Part shown: positions 13,414-64,000 of the stretch, piece after piece
How the letters are laid out: every line of letters starts with the position of its first letter
How positions within the stretch are numbered: position 1 is the stretch's first letter
DNA from: Escherichia coli
GTDB lineage: Bacteria > Pseudomonadota > Gammaproteobacteria > Enterobacterales > Enterobacteriaceae
Length of the DNA stretch: 64,000 bases
Assembly: GCF_030013595.1 (NCBI RefSeq)
Contig: NZ_CP122768.1
Strand: one strand, 5' to 3'
Translations under genes and position numbers: made by a program
Notes under the pieces: generated by a model
What the model was told of the DNA's origin: nothing
What the model saw: the letters and a program-made list of their open reading frames with translations, nothing else
Databases searched by the model: none

Positions 13414-13542
13414 ATATACTCTAAATAATTCGAGTTGCAGGAAGGCGACAAGCGAGTGAATCCCCAGGAGCTTACATAAGTAAGTGACTGGGGTGAGCGA
13501 ACGCAGACGCAGCACATGCAACTTGAAGTATGACGAGTATAT
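13414..13542. repeat. ERIC (IRU) element
   Basis: Contains GTGAATCCCCAGGAGCTTACATAAGTAAGTGACTGGGGTGAGCG; terminal ATATACTC / GAGTATAT. Confidence 0.8.
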
Positions 13543-55798: not shown

Positions 55799-57451
55799 AT
55801 GTCAAAACCATTTATCTGGCAAGAACCGTTTCTACAAAATAAAGACGGTACAGAATATACATTAATTAGCGATCAGCATATTACAGTAACGGAATTAGAC
55901 GGCGAAGAAGTGATAAAAATCGCTCCTGAAGCATTAACGCTGCTTGCCCGGCAGGCATTTTATGAAGCCTCTTTTTTCTTACGTTCCGCTCATTTGCAAC
56001 AGGTCGCCAGCATTCTTAACGATCCGCAGGCCAGTAGTAATGATAAATACGTTGCGTTGCAGTTATTACGTAATGCTGAAGTCTCAGCAAAAGGGGTATT
56101 ACCCAACTGTCAGGATACCGGCACCGCAACTATTGTTGCCAGTAAAGGGCAACAGATATGGACGGGAGGTAACGACGCTGAAGCCTTAAGCAAAGGCATT
56201 TACAGTACTTTCCAGGAAAATAATCTGCGCTTTTCACAAAATGCGCCGCTGGATATGTATACCGAAGTCAATACGCAAACCAATCTCCCGGCGCAGATTG
56301 ATATCAGCGCTGTCGCTGGTAATGAGTACCATTTTCTCTGTGTTAATAAAGGGGGCGGCTCCGCCAATAAAGCCGCACTTTATCAGGAAACCAAATCCTT
56401 ATTGCAACCAGAAAAACTGACCGCATTTTTAATCGAAAAAATGAAATCGCTGGGCACCGCTGCCTGCCCGCCTTACCACATCGCCTTTGTCGTCGGAGGG
56501 CTTTCAGCCGATCAAACCTTAAAAGTTGCCAAGCTGGCCTCAACGAAATATTACGACAATTTGCCCACCAGCGGAAACGAGCAAGGACAAGCATTCCGTG
56601 ATATTGAGCTGGAAAAAGTGTTGCTCGAGGCCAGTCAGCAATTTGGTATTGGTGCGCAATTTGGAGGTAAATATTTCGCTCATGATATTCGCGTCATTCG
56701 TCTGCCGCGTCACGGTGGCTCCTGCCCGATAGCTATGGCGCTCTCCTGTTCTGCCGATCGCAATATCAAAGCAAAAATTAACAAGCACGGTATCTGGCTG
56801 GAAAAACTCGAACACAATCCGGGGCAATATATTCCAGCCTCACTGCGGGAAGAAAATCACGCGCAACATGTACAGCTGGATCTAAACCGTCCGTTGCGTG
56901 ACGTGATGCAGGATCTCGCCAGATTACCGGTAGGTACCCGCGTGTCGTTAAGTGGTCCCATCGTAGTGGCGCGCGATATCGCCCACGCCAAAATAAAAGC
57001 GCGGCTGGATAGCGGCGAACCGATGCCGGATTACCTGAAGCATCATATTGTCTATTACGCTGGCCCGGCGAAAACACCGGAGAACATGGCCTGCGGTTCA
57101 CTAGGTCCAACCACGGGCGGTCGAATGGACGGTTATGTCGATACCTTCCAGGCTGCTGGCGGCAGTCTGGTAATGTTATCGAAAGGTAACCGCAGCCAGC
57201 AGGTCACCGATGCCTGTCACAAACATGGCGGCTTCAATCTGGGAAGTATTGGCGGTGCAGCTGCGTTACTGGCGCAAGAATATGTCAAAAGTCTGCGTTG
57301 CCTGGAATACCCGGAGCTGGGTATGGAAGCGGTGTGGATGATGGAAGTGGAAAATCTGCCCGCATTCATCCTGGTAGATGATAAAGGCAATAATTTCTTT
57401 AGTCAGTTTGAGCAGCAACACCGCTGCGCCAGTTGCCCTGCGGGACATTAA
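55799..57451 (+). CDS. fumD: Class I fumarate hydratase paralog; likely mesaconase (FumD-like)
   Basis: 550 aa, Fe-S class I fumarase family; embedded in methylaspartate cluster. Confidence 0.8.
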
Positions 57452-57460
57452 GGAAAATGA

Positions 57461-58063
57461 ATGGAAGCGCGAATTTCAACTGAACGGCATGTGCAGCGCC
57501 AGCAGAAATTGAAGGAACAGGTCGATACGCGCATCGCGGCGGCGATAGAGAAAAAAGGGATTTTGATTGTTTTCACCGGCAATGGCAAAGGGAAATCCAC
57601 TGCCGCGTTTGGTACTGTGACGCGCGCGGTGGGTCATGGCAAAACGGTGGGGGTTGCGCAGTACATCAAGGGGCAATGGGACAACGGCGAATACAACCTT
57701 CTCCAGCCGCTGGGGGTTGAGTTTCATATTATGGGAACCGGTTTTACCTGGGAGACACAGAACCGGCAAGCGGATATCGACGCGGCGAAAGAGGTCTGGT
57801 CGGAAAGCAAACGGATGCTGGCTGACAAGCGTTACGACTTAGTGGTGCTTGATGAGCTGACCTATATGCTGGCTTACCATTATCTGGATACCGAAGAAGT
57901 GATCGCTTCTCTGCAAAACCGCCCGGCACAACAAAGTGTCATTGTCACCGGACGCGGTTGCCACAGTCAGATATTAAAAATGGCGGATACGGTCAGCGAA
58001 ATCCGCCCCGTCAAACATGCTTTTGATAACGGCATTCAGGCCCAGCCGGGTATCGACTGGTAA
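57461..58063 (+). CDS. Cob(I)alamin adenosyltransferase (CobA/BtuR family)
   Basis: 200 aa, P-loop FTGNGKGKSTAAFG. Confidence 0.85.
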   Translation: MEARISTERHVQRQQKLKEQVDTRIAAAIEKKGILIVFTGNGKGKSTAAFGTVTRAVGHGKTVGVAQYIKGQWDNGEYNLLQPLGVEFHIMGTGFTWETQNRQADIDAAKEVWSESKRMLADKRYDLVVLDELTYMLAYHYLDTEEVIASLQNRPAQQSVIVTGRGCHSQILKMADTVSEIRPVKHAFDNGIQAQPGIDW

Positions 58064-58065
58064 TA

Positions 58066-58096
58066 ACTGCGCCTGGCATCCCGCCAGGCGCAGGTT
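58066..58096. terminator. Bidirectional terminator between adenosyltransferase and LysR genes
   Basis: CTGCGCCTGGC-atcc-CGCCAGGCGCAG hairpin with flanking A/T runs. Confidence 0.5.
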
Positions 58097-59002
58097 TTAC
58101 ATCTCCTGCGGTACAACCGATTTCGCCAGCAACCATTCACGAAATTGCTGCAAGTGCGGTGAGTCAGACTTCTCTTCCTGCCACGTCATAATAAAACGAT
58201 TACCGGTACGAATAGGCACATCACAGGGGATCACCATATCGCCACTATCCAAATCATGTTGAATAGCGAACCGTGGTAACAGCGCCACGCCGAGATTCGA
58301 GCGCACGGCGGCAATCAGCATTGAAAGCAAATCGAAACGTGGTCCGTTGTTGACCAGCGGACTGCTAACGCCAGATAAGGCAAACCACTCTTCCCAGCCA
58401 GTAATACGGGTACTTTGATGCAGAAGTGGTAACTCTGTAAGCAGTTCTGCCACTGACAGTTTTTGATCGGACATTGCAAGCAAACTGCCGCTGCATACCG
58501 GCAAAATCTCCTCATAAAAGAGATATTCTACTTCCGCCCAGGGCGCGCAAAAATTTTCGCGCATAATGACAGCATCGTACTCCCGATTAAGAAAATCGCC
58601 GTTATTAGCTAAAGAGTGAATATTAACAATAATATCGGGATGTAACTTTGTGAATTCATGTAAATTTGGGATTAACCAGTGAGTACTAAACGTAGGATTA
58701 ACGGCAAGTTCAATAACCTGAACCGTAGGCTGCCAGGTCATAATGGTATTGGTATCGCGTTCCAGCTTATTTAATGTTTCTTTTACTATCCCCAGGTAAT
58801 ACTTCCCTGCATCATTAAGAAAAATGCGTTTTTTAGAGTGTGAAAATAACGGAGTATGTAAAAATTCCTCCAGCGCACTTACTTGTCTGAATACAGCACT
58901 TTGGGTTAACGCTAACTCCTCTGCCGCTCTGGTATAGCTTTCATGACGTGCGACGACCTCAAAAGTCACCAGCTGCTCCGTTTTAGGTATTTTTCCTCGC
59001 AT
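58097..59002 (-). CDS. LysR-family transcriptional regulator
   Basis: 301 aa from MRGKIPKTEQL; HTH TQSAVFRQVSALE. Confidence 0.8.
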   Translation of the reverse strand: MRGKIPKTEQLVTFEVVARHESYTRAAEELALTQSAVFRQVSALEEFLHTPLFSHSKKRIFLNDAGKYYLGIVKETLNKLERDTNTIMTWQPTVQVIELAVNPTFSTHWLIPNLHEFTKLHPDIIVNIHSLANNGDFLNREYDAVIMRENFCAPWAEVEYLFYEEILPVCSGSLLAMSDQKLSVAELLTELPLLHQSTRITGWEEWFALSGVSSPLVNNGPRFDLLSMLIAAVRSNLGVALLPRFAIQHDLDSGDMVIPCDVPIRTGNRFIMTWQEEKSDSPHLQQFREWLLAKSVVPQEM

Positions 59003-59213
59003 AATGCCGTCCGTGAAAAAATAACAATTCAAAAATTATTTTATAAAAAACAGTAGCACTAATGAATATCATAATTCAAATAAACAAACCAGTCAGCTAT
59101 ATGTCTAACCAGGAAAATAAAGTGACAATAATCCTAAAACAGGAATTTCACCTCAGTTATCCGCATGCAATACTTTAAAGCTATTATTGCAAGAATATTA
59201 TTCATATACATGA

Positions 59214-59341
59214 ATATACTCTAAATAAGTCAAGTTGCAGGAAGGGAACAAATAATGAATTTCCAGAAGCTTACATAAGTAAGTGACCTGGGTGAGCGAA
59301 CATCGATGCAGCACATGCAACTTGAATTATGACAAGTATAC
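59214..59341. repeat. ERIC-like element, divergent copy
   Basis: Shares ...GCTTACATAAGTAAGTGAC(C)TGGGTGAGCGAAC...GCAGCACATGCAACTTGAA with ERIC at 13414-13542. Confidence 0.65.
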
Positions 59342-59591
59342 AATGATAAATTTATATACCCTATGTTATATATTATCTATGTCCGGTTAAATTGAATGAG
59401 TCATGGCCTTAAAAGACTTCACAAAAGATAATTCCTCTTTAACAATAAGCCAGATTTACCACTTGTAAAACTTGCTATCGCCACATACACTACGCGCGTT
59501 TTCTTTCCCTTTTGCTGGCTGCTGACCGGAAAGACAAAATTACCCTCGCAATACAGGGGGTTGTTTAACGTCTATATTTCAGGACAGCGTT

Positions 59592-60989
59592 ATGCATCAT
59601 CTTTCAAGGCTTGATAAAGCCTTTCTGCGCAAAGGGATCCAACTTTCCCGCGCCAACAATATTGTTTCATTATCTCGTCCATCAGGTGCCAGTGCCCGCG
59701 TACTGCTGCCGGACGAACTGCCGCTGGAAGAAAAAGCAGTAACACAACTGCTTGATTTTGCAGAAGTGAAGCTACCAGACCACCCAGGTTATGTGCGCCA
59801 GACGTGCGCGACGCCAGATTTTCATCCCGGCAATGGAGTCCCCGTTGGCGCGGTGGTGGCCTCAACGCCGGATTTAGTCATTCCCGCCGCCATCGGCACC
59901 GATATTTCTTGTGGCATGCGGCTGCTGACGACCGGATTAACACTTGAGCAAGCCGAAGCGCATAAAGACGTCATCGCTCAGCGGTTAACGCAAGTGCTAC
60001 TGCAAAATGAGCGCGATGTTCCGTTATCCGCACAGGCGTTCACCGCGCTTTTTGATGGCGGACCGGCAGATTGCGTGTCGACCTTGCCATCAGCAGGTCT
60101 CTGGACACGCACGAATATCCCCCGAATGGTACAAGAGATTGACCGCTGCATTGGGCTTAACGAGCATAACAGTCATTCGCGTTATGCCCCACCCGCCCTG
60201 CTGGCAACGGACCGCGCATTACTCCGCGATCCTTGTCTGGGTACGCCGGGTTCAGGTAATCATTTTATTGAACTTCAGGTCGTTGATAGCGTGGTTGATC
60301 GCCATGTAGCCTGGCAACAAGGGCTGAAAACAGGCGATATTGTGGTGATGATCCACAGTGGATCGCGAGATGTTGGCTTTTACGTCGGAAGACGCTGGAT
60401 GGATCGCGCCCGTGCTGAATGGCCCACCGGACATAAACATCCACAAAGCGGGTTATATGGTCTGGCAGGCGGACTGGCGGAGGAATATCTACAAGCGATA
60501 GGAATGGCGGCGCGTTACGCGTGGTTAAATCGCGTCACAATTGCCGAAATGGTGCGCGTATGTCTCGCCAATCTCTTTCATCAGGACAATTCGCATCTGG
60601 TGGTGGATGTGCCGCATAACATCATCCTTCGCGAGCATGAAATGAATATTCATCGCAAAGGTGCAACACCGGCACGAGTGGGCGATCTGGCATTAATCCC
60701 CGGTTCAATGGGCGATTATTCGTGGCTTGCAGTCGGTTGCGGCAACCCGGAGTGGCTGTGGTCATGCAGTCACGGAGCAGGACGCAGCCAGCGTCGACAG
60801 GCCATGCGCTCAAGCGCGACTGAAGAGTCAACGCTGCCGTGGCAATGCGTCACATTGCGTGAAGAACGACGTCTTGAAGAAGCGCCAGCGGCTTATAAAG
60901 ATATTGGTCCGGTTATCGAAGCCCAACAAGAAGCCGGATTAATTCAGCCAGCGGTCAGATTTCGACCGTGGTTAACGTTTAAGGCATAA
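59592..60989 (+). CDS. RtcB-family RNA ligase homolog (orphan)
   Basis: 465 aa; motifs GTDISCGMRL, GSGNHFIEL, HSGSRDVG, SHGAGRS. Confidence 0.75.
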   Translation: MHHLSRLDKAFLRKGIQLSRANNIVSLSRPSGASARVLLPDELPLEEKAVTQLLDFAEVKLPDHPGYVRQTCATPDFHPGNGVPVGAVVASTPDLVIPAAIGTDISCGMRLLTTGLTLEQAEAHKDVIAQRLTQVLLQNERDVPLSAQAFTALFDGGPADCVSTLPSAGLWTRTNIPRMVQEIDRCIGLNEHNSHSRYAPPALLATDRALLRDPCLGTPGSGNHFIELQVVDSVVDRHVAWQQGLKTGDIVVMIHSGSRDVGFYVGRRWMDRARAEWPTGHKHPQSGLYGLAGGLAEEYLQAIGMAARYAWLNRVTIAEMVRVCLANLFHQDNSHLVVDVPHNIILREHEMNIHRKGATPARVGDLALIPGSMGDYSWLAVGCGNPEWLWSCSHGAGRSQRRQAMRSSATEESTLPWQCVTLREERRLEEAPAAYKDIGPVIEAQQEAGLIQPAVRFRPWLTFKA

Positions 60990-61086
60990 AAAAGGCCATC
61001 ATACGATGGCCAACCATGTCGAAACCGACAGCCCTTCGCCATTCCTGTAGAGGGAAGCGGCGAGGGCTATTTCTTATTACAGATAT
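60987..61086 (-). ncRNA. sdhX: sucD 3'UTR with intrinsic terminator; SdhX (RybD) sRNA locus
   Basis: Minus-strand GGCCAUCGUAUGAUGGCC hairpin plus U6 directly downstream of sucD stop. Confidence 0.55.
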
Positions 61087-61956
61087 TTATTTCAGAACAG
61101 TTTTCAGTGCTTCACCGATATCCGCCAGGCTGCGAACGGTTTTCACGCCTGCGGCTTCCAGAGCAGCGAATTTCTCATCCGCAGTCCCTTTCCCACCGGC
61201 AATGATCGCACCCGCGTGGCCCATACGTTTGCCTTTCGGCGCAGTCACACCAGCGATGTAACCCACAACTGGCTTGGTAACATGCTCTTTGATGTACGCA
61301 GCCGCTTCTTCTTCAGCGCTACCGCCGATCTCACCGATCATCACGATCGCTTCGGTCTGCGGATCTTTTTCGAACATTTCGAGGATGTCGATAAAGTTAG
61401 AGCCAGGGATCGGGTCACCGCCGATACCAACACAGGTCGACTGACCGAAACCGTAATCCGTGGTCTGTTTCACCGCTTCATAGGTCAGTGTACCGGAACG
61501 GGAAACGATACCCACTTTACCCGGTTTGTGAATGTGACCAGGCTGGATACCGATTTTGCATTCACCCGGAGTGATAACGCCTGGGCAGTTCGGGCCGATC
61601 ATGCGAACGCCCGCTTCATCCAGTTTCACCTTCACGGTCAGCATATCCAGCGTCGGGATGCCTTCAGTGATGGTGATAATCAGTTTGATGCCTGCATCAA
61701 TAGCTTCCAGAATGGAGTCTTTGCAGAACGGTGCTGGTACGTAGATAACAGAAGCGGTAGCGCCAGTAGCAGCAACAGCTTCACGCACGGTATTGAACAC
61801 CGGCAGGCCGAGGTGGGTAGTACCGCCTTTACCTGGGGTTACGCCGCCAACCATTTTGGTGCCGTATGCAATGGCCTGTTCAGAGTGGAAAGTCCCCTGG
61901 CTACCGGTAAAGCCCTGGCAGATAACCTTGGTGTTTTTATCAATTAAAATGGACAT
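61087..61956 (-). CDS. sucD: Succinyl-CoA synthetase alpha subunit
   Basis: 289 aa. Confidence 0.95.
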
Positions 61957-63122
61957 TATTTCCCCTCCACTGCGGCAACAACCTGCTGAGCTGCATCCGT
62001 CAGACCTTTTGCTGCAATAATATTCAGGCCGCTGTCAGCCAGTTTCTTCGCGCCGAGTTCGGCGTTGTTACCTTCCAGACGTACCACGACCGGTACGTTA
62101 ACACCCACTTCCGCTACCGCGCCGATGATACCGTCAGCGATCAGGTCGCAACGAACGATACCGCCGAAGATGTTAACCAGAACGGCTTTCACTTTGTCGT
62201 CAGAGAGGATGATTTTGAACGCTTCGGTTACACGTTCTTTGGTTGCGCCGCCGCCAACGTCCAGGAAGTTAGCTGGTTCGCCGCCGTGCAGTTTAACGAT
62301 GTCCATCGTACCCATCGCCAGACCTGCGCCGTTAACCATACAACCGATGTTACCGTCCAGCGCAACGTAGTTCAGTTCCCACTGTGCAGCCTGTGCTTCA
62401 CGCGGATCTTCCTGCGACTGGTCACGCATTTCGCGCAGATCAGGCTGGCGGAACAGTGCGTTGCCGTCAGCGCCCAGTTTGCCGTCGAGGCAAATCAGAT
62501 CGCCCTGTTTGGTGATGACCAGCGGGTTGATTTCGATCAGCGCCAGGTCGCGCTCCAGGAAAATGGTCGCCAGGCCCATGAAGATTTTGGTGAACTGCTG
62601 AACCAGTTTACCTTCCAGACCCAGTTTAAACGCCAGCTCGCGTCCCTGATACGGCATCGGGCCAGTCAGCGGATCAAGCGCAACTTTGTGGATCAGGTGC
62701 GGAGTTTCTTCCGCCACTTTTTCGATTTCCACGCCGCCTTCGGTGGAGGCCATAAAGACCACACGACGGGAACTACGGTCAACAACGGCACCGAGATACA
62801 GCTCTTTAGCGATATCGGTCGCTGCTTCAACCAGAATCTGGTTAACCGGTTGGCCATTGGCATCTGTTTGATACGTTACCAGACGCTTGCCCAGCCAGTT
62901 TTCTGCAAAAGCACGGATGTCTTCTTTGCTGTTTACCACTTTCACACCGCCCGCTTTACCGCGGCCACCAGCGTGAACCTGACATTTCACTACCCACGGA
63001 CCGGCACCGATTTTTGAAGCGGCTTCTTCTGCTTCGCGCGGAGTAGTACAGGCATAACCCACCGGTGCTGGTAAGCCATAGCGGGCAAAAAGTTGTTTTG
63101 CCTGATATTCATGTAAGTTCAT
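61956..63122 (-). CDS. sucC: Succinyl-CoA synthetase beta subunit
   Basis: 388 aa [18 protein letters not shown]. Confidence 0.95.
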
Positions 63123-63215
63123 GTGTTCTGTCCATCCTTCAGTAATCGTTATCTTTTAAACCGTAGACCGACACCCTATCCACGTCGGTCTACAGTGCAG
63201 GTGAAGCTTAAACTA

Positions 63216-64000
63216 CTACACGTCCAGCAGCAGACGAGTCGGATCTTCCAGCAACTCTTTGATCGTTACCAGGAAGCCCACGGATTCGCGACCATCGATC
63301 AGACGGTGATCGTAGGACAGCGCCAGGTACATCATCGGCAAGATCTCAACCTGACCATTCACCGCCATCGGACGATCTTTGATAGCGTGCATACCCAGAA
63401 TTGCGCTCTGCGGCGGGTTGATGATCGGCGTAGACATCAGGGAACCGAACACACCACCATTGGTGATGGTGAAGTTACCACCGGTCAGATCTTCAACGGT
63501 CAGCTTGCCGTCACGGCCTTTAACAGCCAGCTCTTTGATTTTCTTCTCGATGTCTGCCATGCCGAGGGTATCGACATCACGCAGAACCGGCGTCACCAGG
63601 CCGCGCGGCGTAGAAACCGCCATGCTGACGTCGAAATAGTTGTGGTAAACCACATCATCGCCGTCGATAGACGCGTTCACTTCCGGGTAACGTTTCAGGG
63701 CTTCAACCACCGCTTTCACGTAGAAGGACATAAAGCCCAGACGGATGCCGTGGCGTTTTTCAAACGCTTCACCGTACTGCTTACGCAGATCCATAATCGG
63801 CTTCATGTTGACTTCGTTGAACGTGGTCAGCATGGCGGTGGAGTTTTTCGCTTCCAGCAGACGCTCAGCCACACGCTTACGCAGGCGAGTCATCGGCACA
63901 CGTTTTTCGCTACGTGCAGCCAGAGCCGGTTGCGCCGCCGGAGCAGCCGCTGCCGGAGCAGACTCTTTCGCCGGGGCTTTCGCCAGATGTTTTTCCACAT
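63216..64000 (-). CDS. sucB: Dihydrolipoyllysine succinyltransferase (E2o), 3' part only; 5' end beyond window
   Basis: C-terminal catalytic domain, frame open to window end. Confidence 0.9.

Follow-up and report, generated by a model that had tools for sequence, protein, structure and literature searches.

In a 64,000-nt window of an Escherichia coli genome (contig NZ_CP122768.1, assembly GCF_030013595.1; "the window" below means this whole stretch) we analyzed a gene adjacent to sucD that encodes a 465-aa protein of the RtcB family. We consider it probable that this gene, designated here as rtcB3-type, encodes a functional stand-alone ligase of a separate RtcB clade (RtcB3), is uncoupled from the neighboring gene for a LysR-family regulator, and is controlled in cis by a structured leader RNA. 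Two settings of RtcB ligases have been known in E. coli, RtcBA under RtcR and RtcB2 with PrfH for ribosome repair, and the natural substrates and induction signals of bacterial RtcB are only partly understood. The rtcB3 clade is a third lineage, widely distributed and unstudied, that has no protein partner and apparently possesses an RNA-level control element of its own. The gene is already annotated as coding for an RtcB family protein, and a third RtcB in some E. coli strains has already been mentioned in print; what appears to be new is that an RtcB lineage has, instead of the RtcR or PrfH arrangements, a structured leader that is conserved. If the leader does gate translation, it would offer a simple and testable way to find out under which conditions cells require this ligase.

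The rtcB3-type gene encodes a full-length RtcB protein with a complete catalytic set

The protein matched the Pfam RtcB family (PF01139) with E=1.4e-94 over residues 63–464, which cover model positions 7–425 of 426, and PHROG 1075, 'tRNA splicing ligase', with E=6e-68. The RtcB motifs noticed in the original prediction, which was made from the DNA sequence, thus belong to a full-length member of the family. The protein is indeed longer than RtcB of E. coli K-12 (408 aa), as had been remarked, but its length appears normal within the family, since the RtcB of Pyrococcus horikoshii has 481 aa and can be aligned with it from query residue 40.

In the alignment, D104, C107 and H224 correspond to D95, C98 and H203 of the first Mn2+ site of the P. 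horikoshii enzyme, C107, H255 and H342 correspond to C98, H234 and H329 of the second Mn2+ site, and H394 corresponds to His404, the GMP-accepting histidine in the HGAGR motif (the roles of the P. horikoshii residues are taken from PMC10630183). Ten residues of the protein (D76, H78, D104, C107, N223, H224, H255, H342, H394 and R398) were identical in 98% or more of 120 homologues and invariant in a 28-sequence alignment. The loss of catalytic His or Cys residues, which the original prediction named as a refutation, does not occur. The AlphaFold2 model had a predicted local distance difference test score (pLDDT) of 88.8 and a predicted template modeling score (pTM) of 0.91. When it was compared with PDB structures by Foldseek, the top 16 matches were all RtcB proteins (archaeal, Thermus and human) with template modeling (TM) scores of 0.74–0.84, while the E-value of the next match exceeded 0.1.

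Since the catalytic residues are shared with E. coli RtcB1, a member of the same Pfam family, the rtcB3 protein probably has the same GTP/Mn2+ chemistry sealing 3'-phosphate and 5'-OH ends. It would react with GTP in a Mn2+-dependent manner to give a covalent His394-GMP; the GMP would then be passed to an RNA 3'-phosphate, itself formed from a 2',3'-cyclic phosphate, and the attack of a 5'-OH end on the activated RNA end would seal the break. According to another reading, which we regard as improbable, the protein is less a sealing ligase than mainly an end-capping or end-modifying enzyme that guanylylates 5'-phosphate or DNA 3'-phosphate, maybe acting on DNA. Such activities are on record, as the RtcB paralogues of Myxococcus xanthus (including RtcB3) are variable in ligation and capping and E. 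coli RtcB forms DNA3'pp5'G caps (PMC10630183), and the clade is as far from RtcB1 as from any characterised enzyme. Sequence cannot discriminate between the two reactions, which are served by the same catalytic residues, but the linkage of clade genes to rtcR/RtcB1 loci in some taxa (see below) points to RNA.

The protein belongs to a lineage distinct from RtcB1 and RtcB2

In a neighbor-joining tree the protein formed a branch separate from E. coli RtcB1 (EcRtcB1), RtcB2 of uropathogenic E. coli 536 (EcRtcB2) and P. horikoshii RtcB, to which it is 31.5, 33.2 and 33.0% identical, respectively. Its scores with both models of PrfH-coupled RtcB were below the cut-offs (167.6 vs. 271.8 for TIGR03073 and 204 vs. 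407 for NF007153). The comparison with known RtcB clades that had been proposed in the original prediction therefore places the protein outside both RtcB1 and RtcB2. Close relatives of 462–485 aa with an identity level of 58–67% were found in Pseudomonas aeruginosa, Burkholderia, Ralstonia, Variovorax, Chitinimonas and others. In total, 288 relatives were revealed in a scan of one genome per species, including those from Janthinobacterium, Comamonas, Gilliamella, Snodgrassella, Xenorhabdus, Pectobacterium and Enterobacillus. By sequence comparison, these ~465-aa proteins of Gamma- and Betaproteobacteria form a distinct and well conserved clade.

Apart from the differences in sequence and length, the rtcB3-type gene differs from that of RtcB1 in the lack of rtcA, of a divergent rtcR and of a sigma-54 promoter, and in the presence of its own structured leader; furthermore, it is accessory, whereas RtcB1 is near-universal. 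It resembles the E. coli RtcB2-PrfH ribosome repair module, which is thought to counter ribotoxins (PMC9304027; PMC9223846), in being a strain-variable RtcB paralogue beyond RtcB1, but is set apart from it by the identity level and model scores given above and by the absence of an adjacent prfH.

The proteins PH1602 of P. horikoshii and TTHA1785 of Thermus thermophilus are similar in length to the rtcB3 protein, can be aligned with it over the full length including the N-terminal part, and are its best structural matches (TM 0.75–0.82). However, the identity to the archaeal and Thermus proteins is ~33% in the MAFFT alignment and 26–27% in the Foldseek structural alignments. Besides, unlike archaeal RtcB, the rtcB3-type gene has a proteobacterial host, and there was no archease among its recurrent neighbors in 80 clade loci. 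Archaeal RtcB serves tRNA splicing, and such a role is not expected for the rtcB3-type gene.

The window region 58000–61200 is 100% identical to the sequence of E. coli strain HCP5S3_I2. The search of the genome for prfH and rtcA advised in the original prediction was partly answered by this strain, in which prfH (frameshifted) and rtcB2 are present only as pseudogene fragments. A three-part chimeric BLAST query found three separate places in HCP5S3_I2, one of which turned out on inspection to be the prfH remnant; judging by the third place, a canonical rtcB also appears to be carried elsewhere in this strain. It should be mentioned that in RefSeq the RtcB2 pseudogene fragment of HCP5S3_I2 (L097, 1609–2163) bears a note on a role in the drug-inducible expression of mexXY. 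In Pseudomonas, regulatory functions other than ligation have been ascribed to RtcB homologues of the PrfH type.

The mexXY phenotype cited in this note favors a further reading, in our opinion very improbable, in which catalysis by the rtcB3 protein is lost or subordinate and the protein acts in binding or regulation, like the PrfH-linked RtcB homologue ArmZ, which reportedly controls mexXY induction in Pseudomonas (the protein behind the phenotype is presumably ArmZ/PA5471). The conservation of the catalytic residues across the 120 homologues argues for retained enzymology, and the clade loci contain no conserved partner gene.

Genes of the rtcB3 clade have no fixed partner

Within 20 kb to the left and right of the rtcB3-type gene, the annotation of this region shows no rtcA, rtcR or prfH. 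To survey possible partners, we clustered the ORFs called in up to 6 kb of flank per side at 80 clade loci. Neither rtcA nor prfH was found at any of them (0/80 each), no neighbor family was present at more than 14 loci, and the gene contexts of individual loci were wholly different. Thus, the absence of RtcA, RtcR and PrfH partners claimed in the original prediction was borne out, and there is no sign of membership in an rtcBA operon.

The promoter region is also different from that of rtcBA. The 559-bp spacer upstream of the gene contains no GG-N10-GC site of the sigma-54 type and none was found in the clade loci, where the best site scored 9/12 as compared with 12/12 for the K-12 rtcB control; a sigma-54 promoter as in rtcBA is thereby ruled out. 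A sigma-70 promoter search within 59484–59591 gave no match at the scan threshold. Among the PADLOC defence models, no family matched the rtcB3 protein at E up to 0.01.

A second RtcB was located within 6 kb of the clade gene at 10 of the 80 loci. It was of the K-12 type at eight Gilliamella loci and one Enterobacillus locus, while in a metagenome-assembled genome of Comamonadaceae it was in tandem with the clade gene. In eight of those loci (seven of Gilliamella and that of Enterobacillus) the RtcB1-like operon is faced by RtcR (774 bits vs. the cut-off of 650), and rtcR was found near the clade gene only in these two genera. Such recurrent RNA-repair neighbors may be taken, by association, to support an RNA-repair role without a fixed partnership. 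Repair after ribotoxin or phage attack, put forward in the original prediction, would be a plausible role.

The rtcR-controlled operons of Gilliamella (L054, 75–5853) and Enterobacillus (L018, 7420–13260) contain the RtcB1-like gene without rtcA. Further, unassigned proteins of 525 and 254 aa are encoded in the former, and an SPFH-like protein of 377 aa and a 262-aa protein in the latter.

A conserved structured leader precedes genes of the clade

Upstream conservation starts exactly at position 59484 in 4/4 other Escherichia-type loci (L009, L011, L016 and L017), whatever adjoins it upstream. A box CTGAC(N)GGAAAGACAAAAT, located 67–71 nt before the ATG, is kept in relatives with ~66% protein identity found in unrelated contexts. 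When folded, the region 59510–59600 formed one long hairpin with a minimum free energy (MFE) of -29.2 kcal/mol (z=-3.87), and 0/200 shuffles were as stable; the same fold was obtained for Enterobacillus and for a second enterobacterial sequence. The 5' strand of the hairpin includes the invariant motif GCUGCUG (59518–59524), while its 3' strand holds the Shine-Dalgarno (SD) sequence and extends to the AUG.

In 876 kb of sequence, a covariance model built from six sequences gave 20 matches with E-values not exceeding 1. Each of them immediately precedes a clade gene, among others in Pectobacterium, Xenorhabdus, Gilliamella, Snodgrassella and Janthinobacterium. With a second model (R2) we revealed 53 matches in 1.08 Mb, all at the 5' end of clade genes (e.g., L090:5921–6007; L042:5919–6004; L019:5913–5995; L045:5920–6007). 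One match that seemed displaced lies at the 5' end of a gene that a 4.6-kb insertion has divided. Neither the K-12 rtcBA locus nor the RtcB2-prfH locus was matched by the models, and the window contained no match outside this leader. In Snodgrassella gandavensis (L080, 1238–6020) the clade gene is broken after ~17 codons by an insertion of ~4.6 kb with two long ORFs, possibly a mobile element.

Pairing was counted in 44 distinct leader sequences, in an alignment that was fitted to the model and therefore favors structure: 86.3% of the cells were paired and compensatory changes were present in 16 of the 24 pairs. The covariation score was 0.463, as compared with at most 0.135 when the partners were slid by 1–3 columns, and 0/500 shuffles reached it. 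Single-sequence folds of the same leaders, which are independent of the alignment, gave median values of -28.4 kcal/mol for the MFE and -3.7 for z (below -2 in 39/44); in 37 of the 44, the closing stem had GCUGCUG as its 5' strand. The apical stems are complementary despite unrelated sequences (ACCCU/GGGGG, UCUUCUC/GAGGAGA, CUUCUUCC/GGAAGAAG and GGCCCUU/AAGGGCC).

The same data bear on the question whether the upstream element is instead a feature of the DNA, either a palindromic operator or an upstream terminator, and not an RNA leader. We consider this unlikely. The 5' strand GCUGCUG..GGAAA is conserved in sequence beyond pairing, and the leaders of Gilliamella, Xenorhabdus and Snodgrassella have a U-run after the apical hairpin as in an intrinsic terminator, both as expected of a DNA-level element. 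But the element keeps a fixed distance to the ATG of the clade gene across unrelated contexts, while a terminator of upstream genes would not travel with the downstream gene. The compensatory changes described above also speak for a paired RNA. Moreover, the sense strand of the leader has frequent G-U pairs, at whose positions the other strand or a DNA palindrome would have A-C mismatches, and RNA is therefore favored. In some taxa the leader may serve as a terminator-like attenuator as well.

The hairpin and its covariation are directly observed in the sequences, whereas a regulatory function is suggested by the position of its 3' strand. The ~90-nt hairpin would sequester the SD sequence and the AUG and so probably control expression in cis, translation requiring that it be opened by a trigger. 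In pairing the SD and AUG region with an upstream strand in a stable hairpin, the leader is similar to RNA thermometers and to the expression platforms of translational riboswitches. It differs from the known SD-sequestering leaders in having no Rfam match, no recognisable aptamer-like multi-stem junction and an invariant 5' strand. The Rfam search of the region 57000–64000 gave nothing at E up to 1; the leader itself had only chance-level matches (15.4 and 9.6 bits vs. gathering scores of 55 and 50), and the leaders of four other loci had none. A literature search found no paper tying RtcB to a riboswitch candidate or a structured-RNA motif, and the conserved structured leader of the rtcB3-type clade appears not to have been described before.

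It can also be imagined that the rtcB3-type gene and its leader form an autonomous one-gene RNA-repair module in which the leader senses damage and switches the ligase on. The invariant SD-sequestering leader would, for example, be cut or unfolded upon the action of ribotoxins, stress RNases or translation damage, and ligase synthesis would follow. The RtcR/sigma-54 signalling of RtcB1 would thereby be replaced, and the cell would gain a third pathway of repair acting on a substrate range of its own. We put this forward tentatively and consider it rather doubtful.

Two further candidates for the conserved upstream box were rejected. A leader peptide does not fit, as the nucleotides of the box are conserved between E. 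coli and Enterobacillus but the short ORFs present there are in different reading frames, and a LexA-like box (CTGA-N8-ACAA) has a poor core and a GC-rich centre.

The gene is maintained in a minority of E. coli strains

The full-length gene was found in 289 of 5426 complete E. coli genomes (~5%), always as one chromosomal copy, in agreement with the suggestion of the original prediction that it belongs to accessory DNA. Intact alleles differ mostly at synonymous sites, and dN/dS values of 0.13–0.17 indicate that the gene is under purifying selection, being maintained where present and readily lost.

Several observations weigh against the interpretation of the gene as a functional ligase gene under leader control. 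The gene is dispensable, and only a remnant is present in 401 further genomes of the 5426. In one lineage (cluster P0004, 189 member sequences; L099, 2800–3001) the start codon has been lost by a change from ATG to a non-ATG codon (Ile). No promoter for the rtcB3-type gene was identified in the upstream scans. As for the leader, the pair counts come from the model-fitted alignment, and the invariance of GCUGCUG is not accounted for by base pairing alone. In addition, RNAalifold found no consensus structure in a MAFFT-only alignment of 16 leaders, because the 3' halves are misaligned in it. Finally, the connection with the literature is indirect. In one sentence, Tian et al. 2022 PNAS (PMC9304027) mention a 'third RtcB' that differs from EcRtcB1 and EcRtcB2 and occurs in about 60 E. 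coli strains. The rtcB3-type gene, which is likewise distinct from both and present in a minority of strains, is likely the same gene, but this identity is presumed because the paper gives no sequence, and neither locus nor function.

Genomic setting and the neighboring LysR gene

The features of the region are given in Table 1.

Table 1. Features of the window around the rtcB3-type gene
Feature	Position	Strand	Basis or remark
LysR-family regulator (GcvA-like), last gene of the methylaspartate/mesaconate island	58097..59032	-	NCBIfam, RefSeq annotation; context only, no partner
ERIC-like imperfect palindrome in the LysR-rtcB spacer	59215..59340	.	Inverted repeat and ERIC2 core
Conserved upstream 108 bp, always accompanying the rtcB3-type gene	59484..59591	+	Homology boundary vs. 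L009, L011, L016, L017
Candidate structured 5' leader RNA, one long hairpin	59508..59598	+	Folding, covariance models, covariation
rtcB3-type gene	59592..60989	+	ORF of 465 aa with ATG start; RefSeq WP_112024674.1 'RtcB family protein'
Small RNA SdhX (3' untranslated region of sucD)	60986..61086	-	K-12 b4764 annotation, identical sequence
sucD, core-genome flank	61087..61956	-	ORF list and RefSeq

From the cydA side to sucD, the order of genes on the HCP5S3_I2 record is as follows: cydA, two hypothetical genes, glmS, glmL, the genes for methylaspartate mutase subunit E, methylaspartate ammonia-lyase, an AtuA-family protein, a DUF4387 protein, a dicarboxylate/amino-acid symporter and class I fumarase, cobO, the LysR gene (opposite strand), the RtcB gene, and sucD and sucC (opposite strand). 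In K-12 the island, LysR and rtcB are replaced by mngR-mngAB. The rtcB3-type gene is an accessory gene at the variable sucD/sdhX-cydA hotspot.

Four arrangements of this region were distinguished in E. coli. In arrangement A, that of the window, the island is followed by LysR, the ERIC-containing spacer, rtcB and sdhX/sucD. Arrangement B consists of LysR, hutH-G-I-D, a permease gene, hutU, rtcB and sucD, and its homology to the window begins only at 59484. In E. coli FUJ80154 (L009, 598–8339) the hut operon takes up ~8 kb between LysR and rtcB3, and a divergent histidine-utilisation operon of this kind precedes rtcB3 in other strains as well as in a related species with 87% protein identity (L009, L011 and L016). 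In arrangement C (E. coli 042 type) the island and LysR are intact, while two abutting fragments corresponding to window positions 60716–60772 and 60946–60989, ~100 bp in all, are left of rtcB next to the sdhX terminator (L010, 8944–9044). In arrangement E the island and LysR are present, rtcB adjoins mngB, and mngRAB is retained; here the start codon is non-ATG (read as Ile) and the coding sequence is annotated from Val68.

The original prediction implied a functional link between the LysR gene and rtcB. In the corresponding explanation, rtcB3 is a target of the divergent LysR and a functional part of the methylaspartate island. The divergent orientation and the spacer of 559 bp (589 bp with the RefSeq start of LysR at 59002) agree with it, as does a divergent LysR-type neighbor at three other loci (L036, L061 and L066). 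Nevertheless, we regard it as extremely improbable. In E. coli 042 the island and LysR are kept without rtcB, in other strains the hut operon intervenes, and the sequence shared with relatives reaches no further than 108 bp upstream of the ATG. LysR-type regulators, although the commonest neighbor family, occurred at 14 of the 80 clade loci in varying positions and orientations, so that no conserved regulator-target pairing was seen across genomes. Neither is rtcB inherited together with the island (glmS/glmE/mal/fumD), as the clade is widespread in other genera in unrelated contexts. In the drawing of the glutamate-fermentation (methylaspartate/mesaconate) cluster of E. coli O157:H7 the LysR-type regulator is a member and rtcB is absent (Kronen and Berg, 2015, PMC4682846), which assigns the regulator to the metabolic cluster. 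Because of these arrangements, the allele junction described below and the distribution of the clade, rtcB is separate from LysR and from the metabolic island, and its control by LysR is unlikely.

The 3' end of the gene abuts SdhX

The original prediction placed the stop codon of rtcB next to the hairpin terminating sucD. The hairpin is indeed close by, with 4 nt between the TAA (60987–60989) and the stem (60994–61011), but it is the terminator of the small RNA SdhX. In K-12, SdhX comprises 101 nt after sucD, and homology to K-12 stops directly past the SdhX T-run. The final 4 nt of the rtcB ORF lie within SdhX, whose terminator hairpin with the U-tract overlaps the stop codon. In a scan the terminator was called on the minus strand only, the rtcB strand having no U-tract after the hairpin. 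Since only the sdhX strand has a U-tract at the shared hairpin (60990–61015), transcription of rtcB3 may continue past it, antisense to sdhX and sucD. The Rfam scan of 57000–64000 gave no match for SdhX, and apparently no matching Rfam model covers it.

The alleles adjacent to mngB are homologous to the window only up to position 60984; therefore, the last codon and the stop of the window ORF derive from the sdhX side of a recombination junction, and this junction is the reason why the stop codon sits against the hairpin. Two tempting misreadings of the locus are corrected by the analysis, that of LysR as a partner and that of the hairpin as merely the sucD terminator. The sdhX-side sequence 60984–60993 resembles that of K-12 just after the mngR stop and has the appearance of a recombination or deletion junction.

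The upstream region of ~560 bp described in the original prediction as containing an enterobacterial repetitive intergenic consensus (ERIC) element was confirmed as such. The imperfect palindrome of 126 bp (~127 bp is typical of ERIC) has arms of 25 nt (59215–59239 and 59316–59340) that are 76 nt apart, and its core at 59277–59298 matches the ERIC2 primer sequence with 2 mismatches, as compared with 0 matches expected by chance. The palindrome is absent from the hut-linked arrangement. A second ERIC copy, with a perfect match to the ERIC2 core, is present in the window at 13478–13499.

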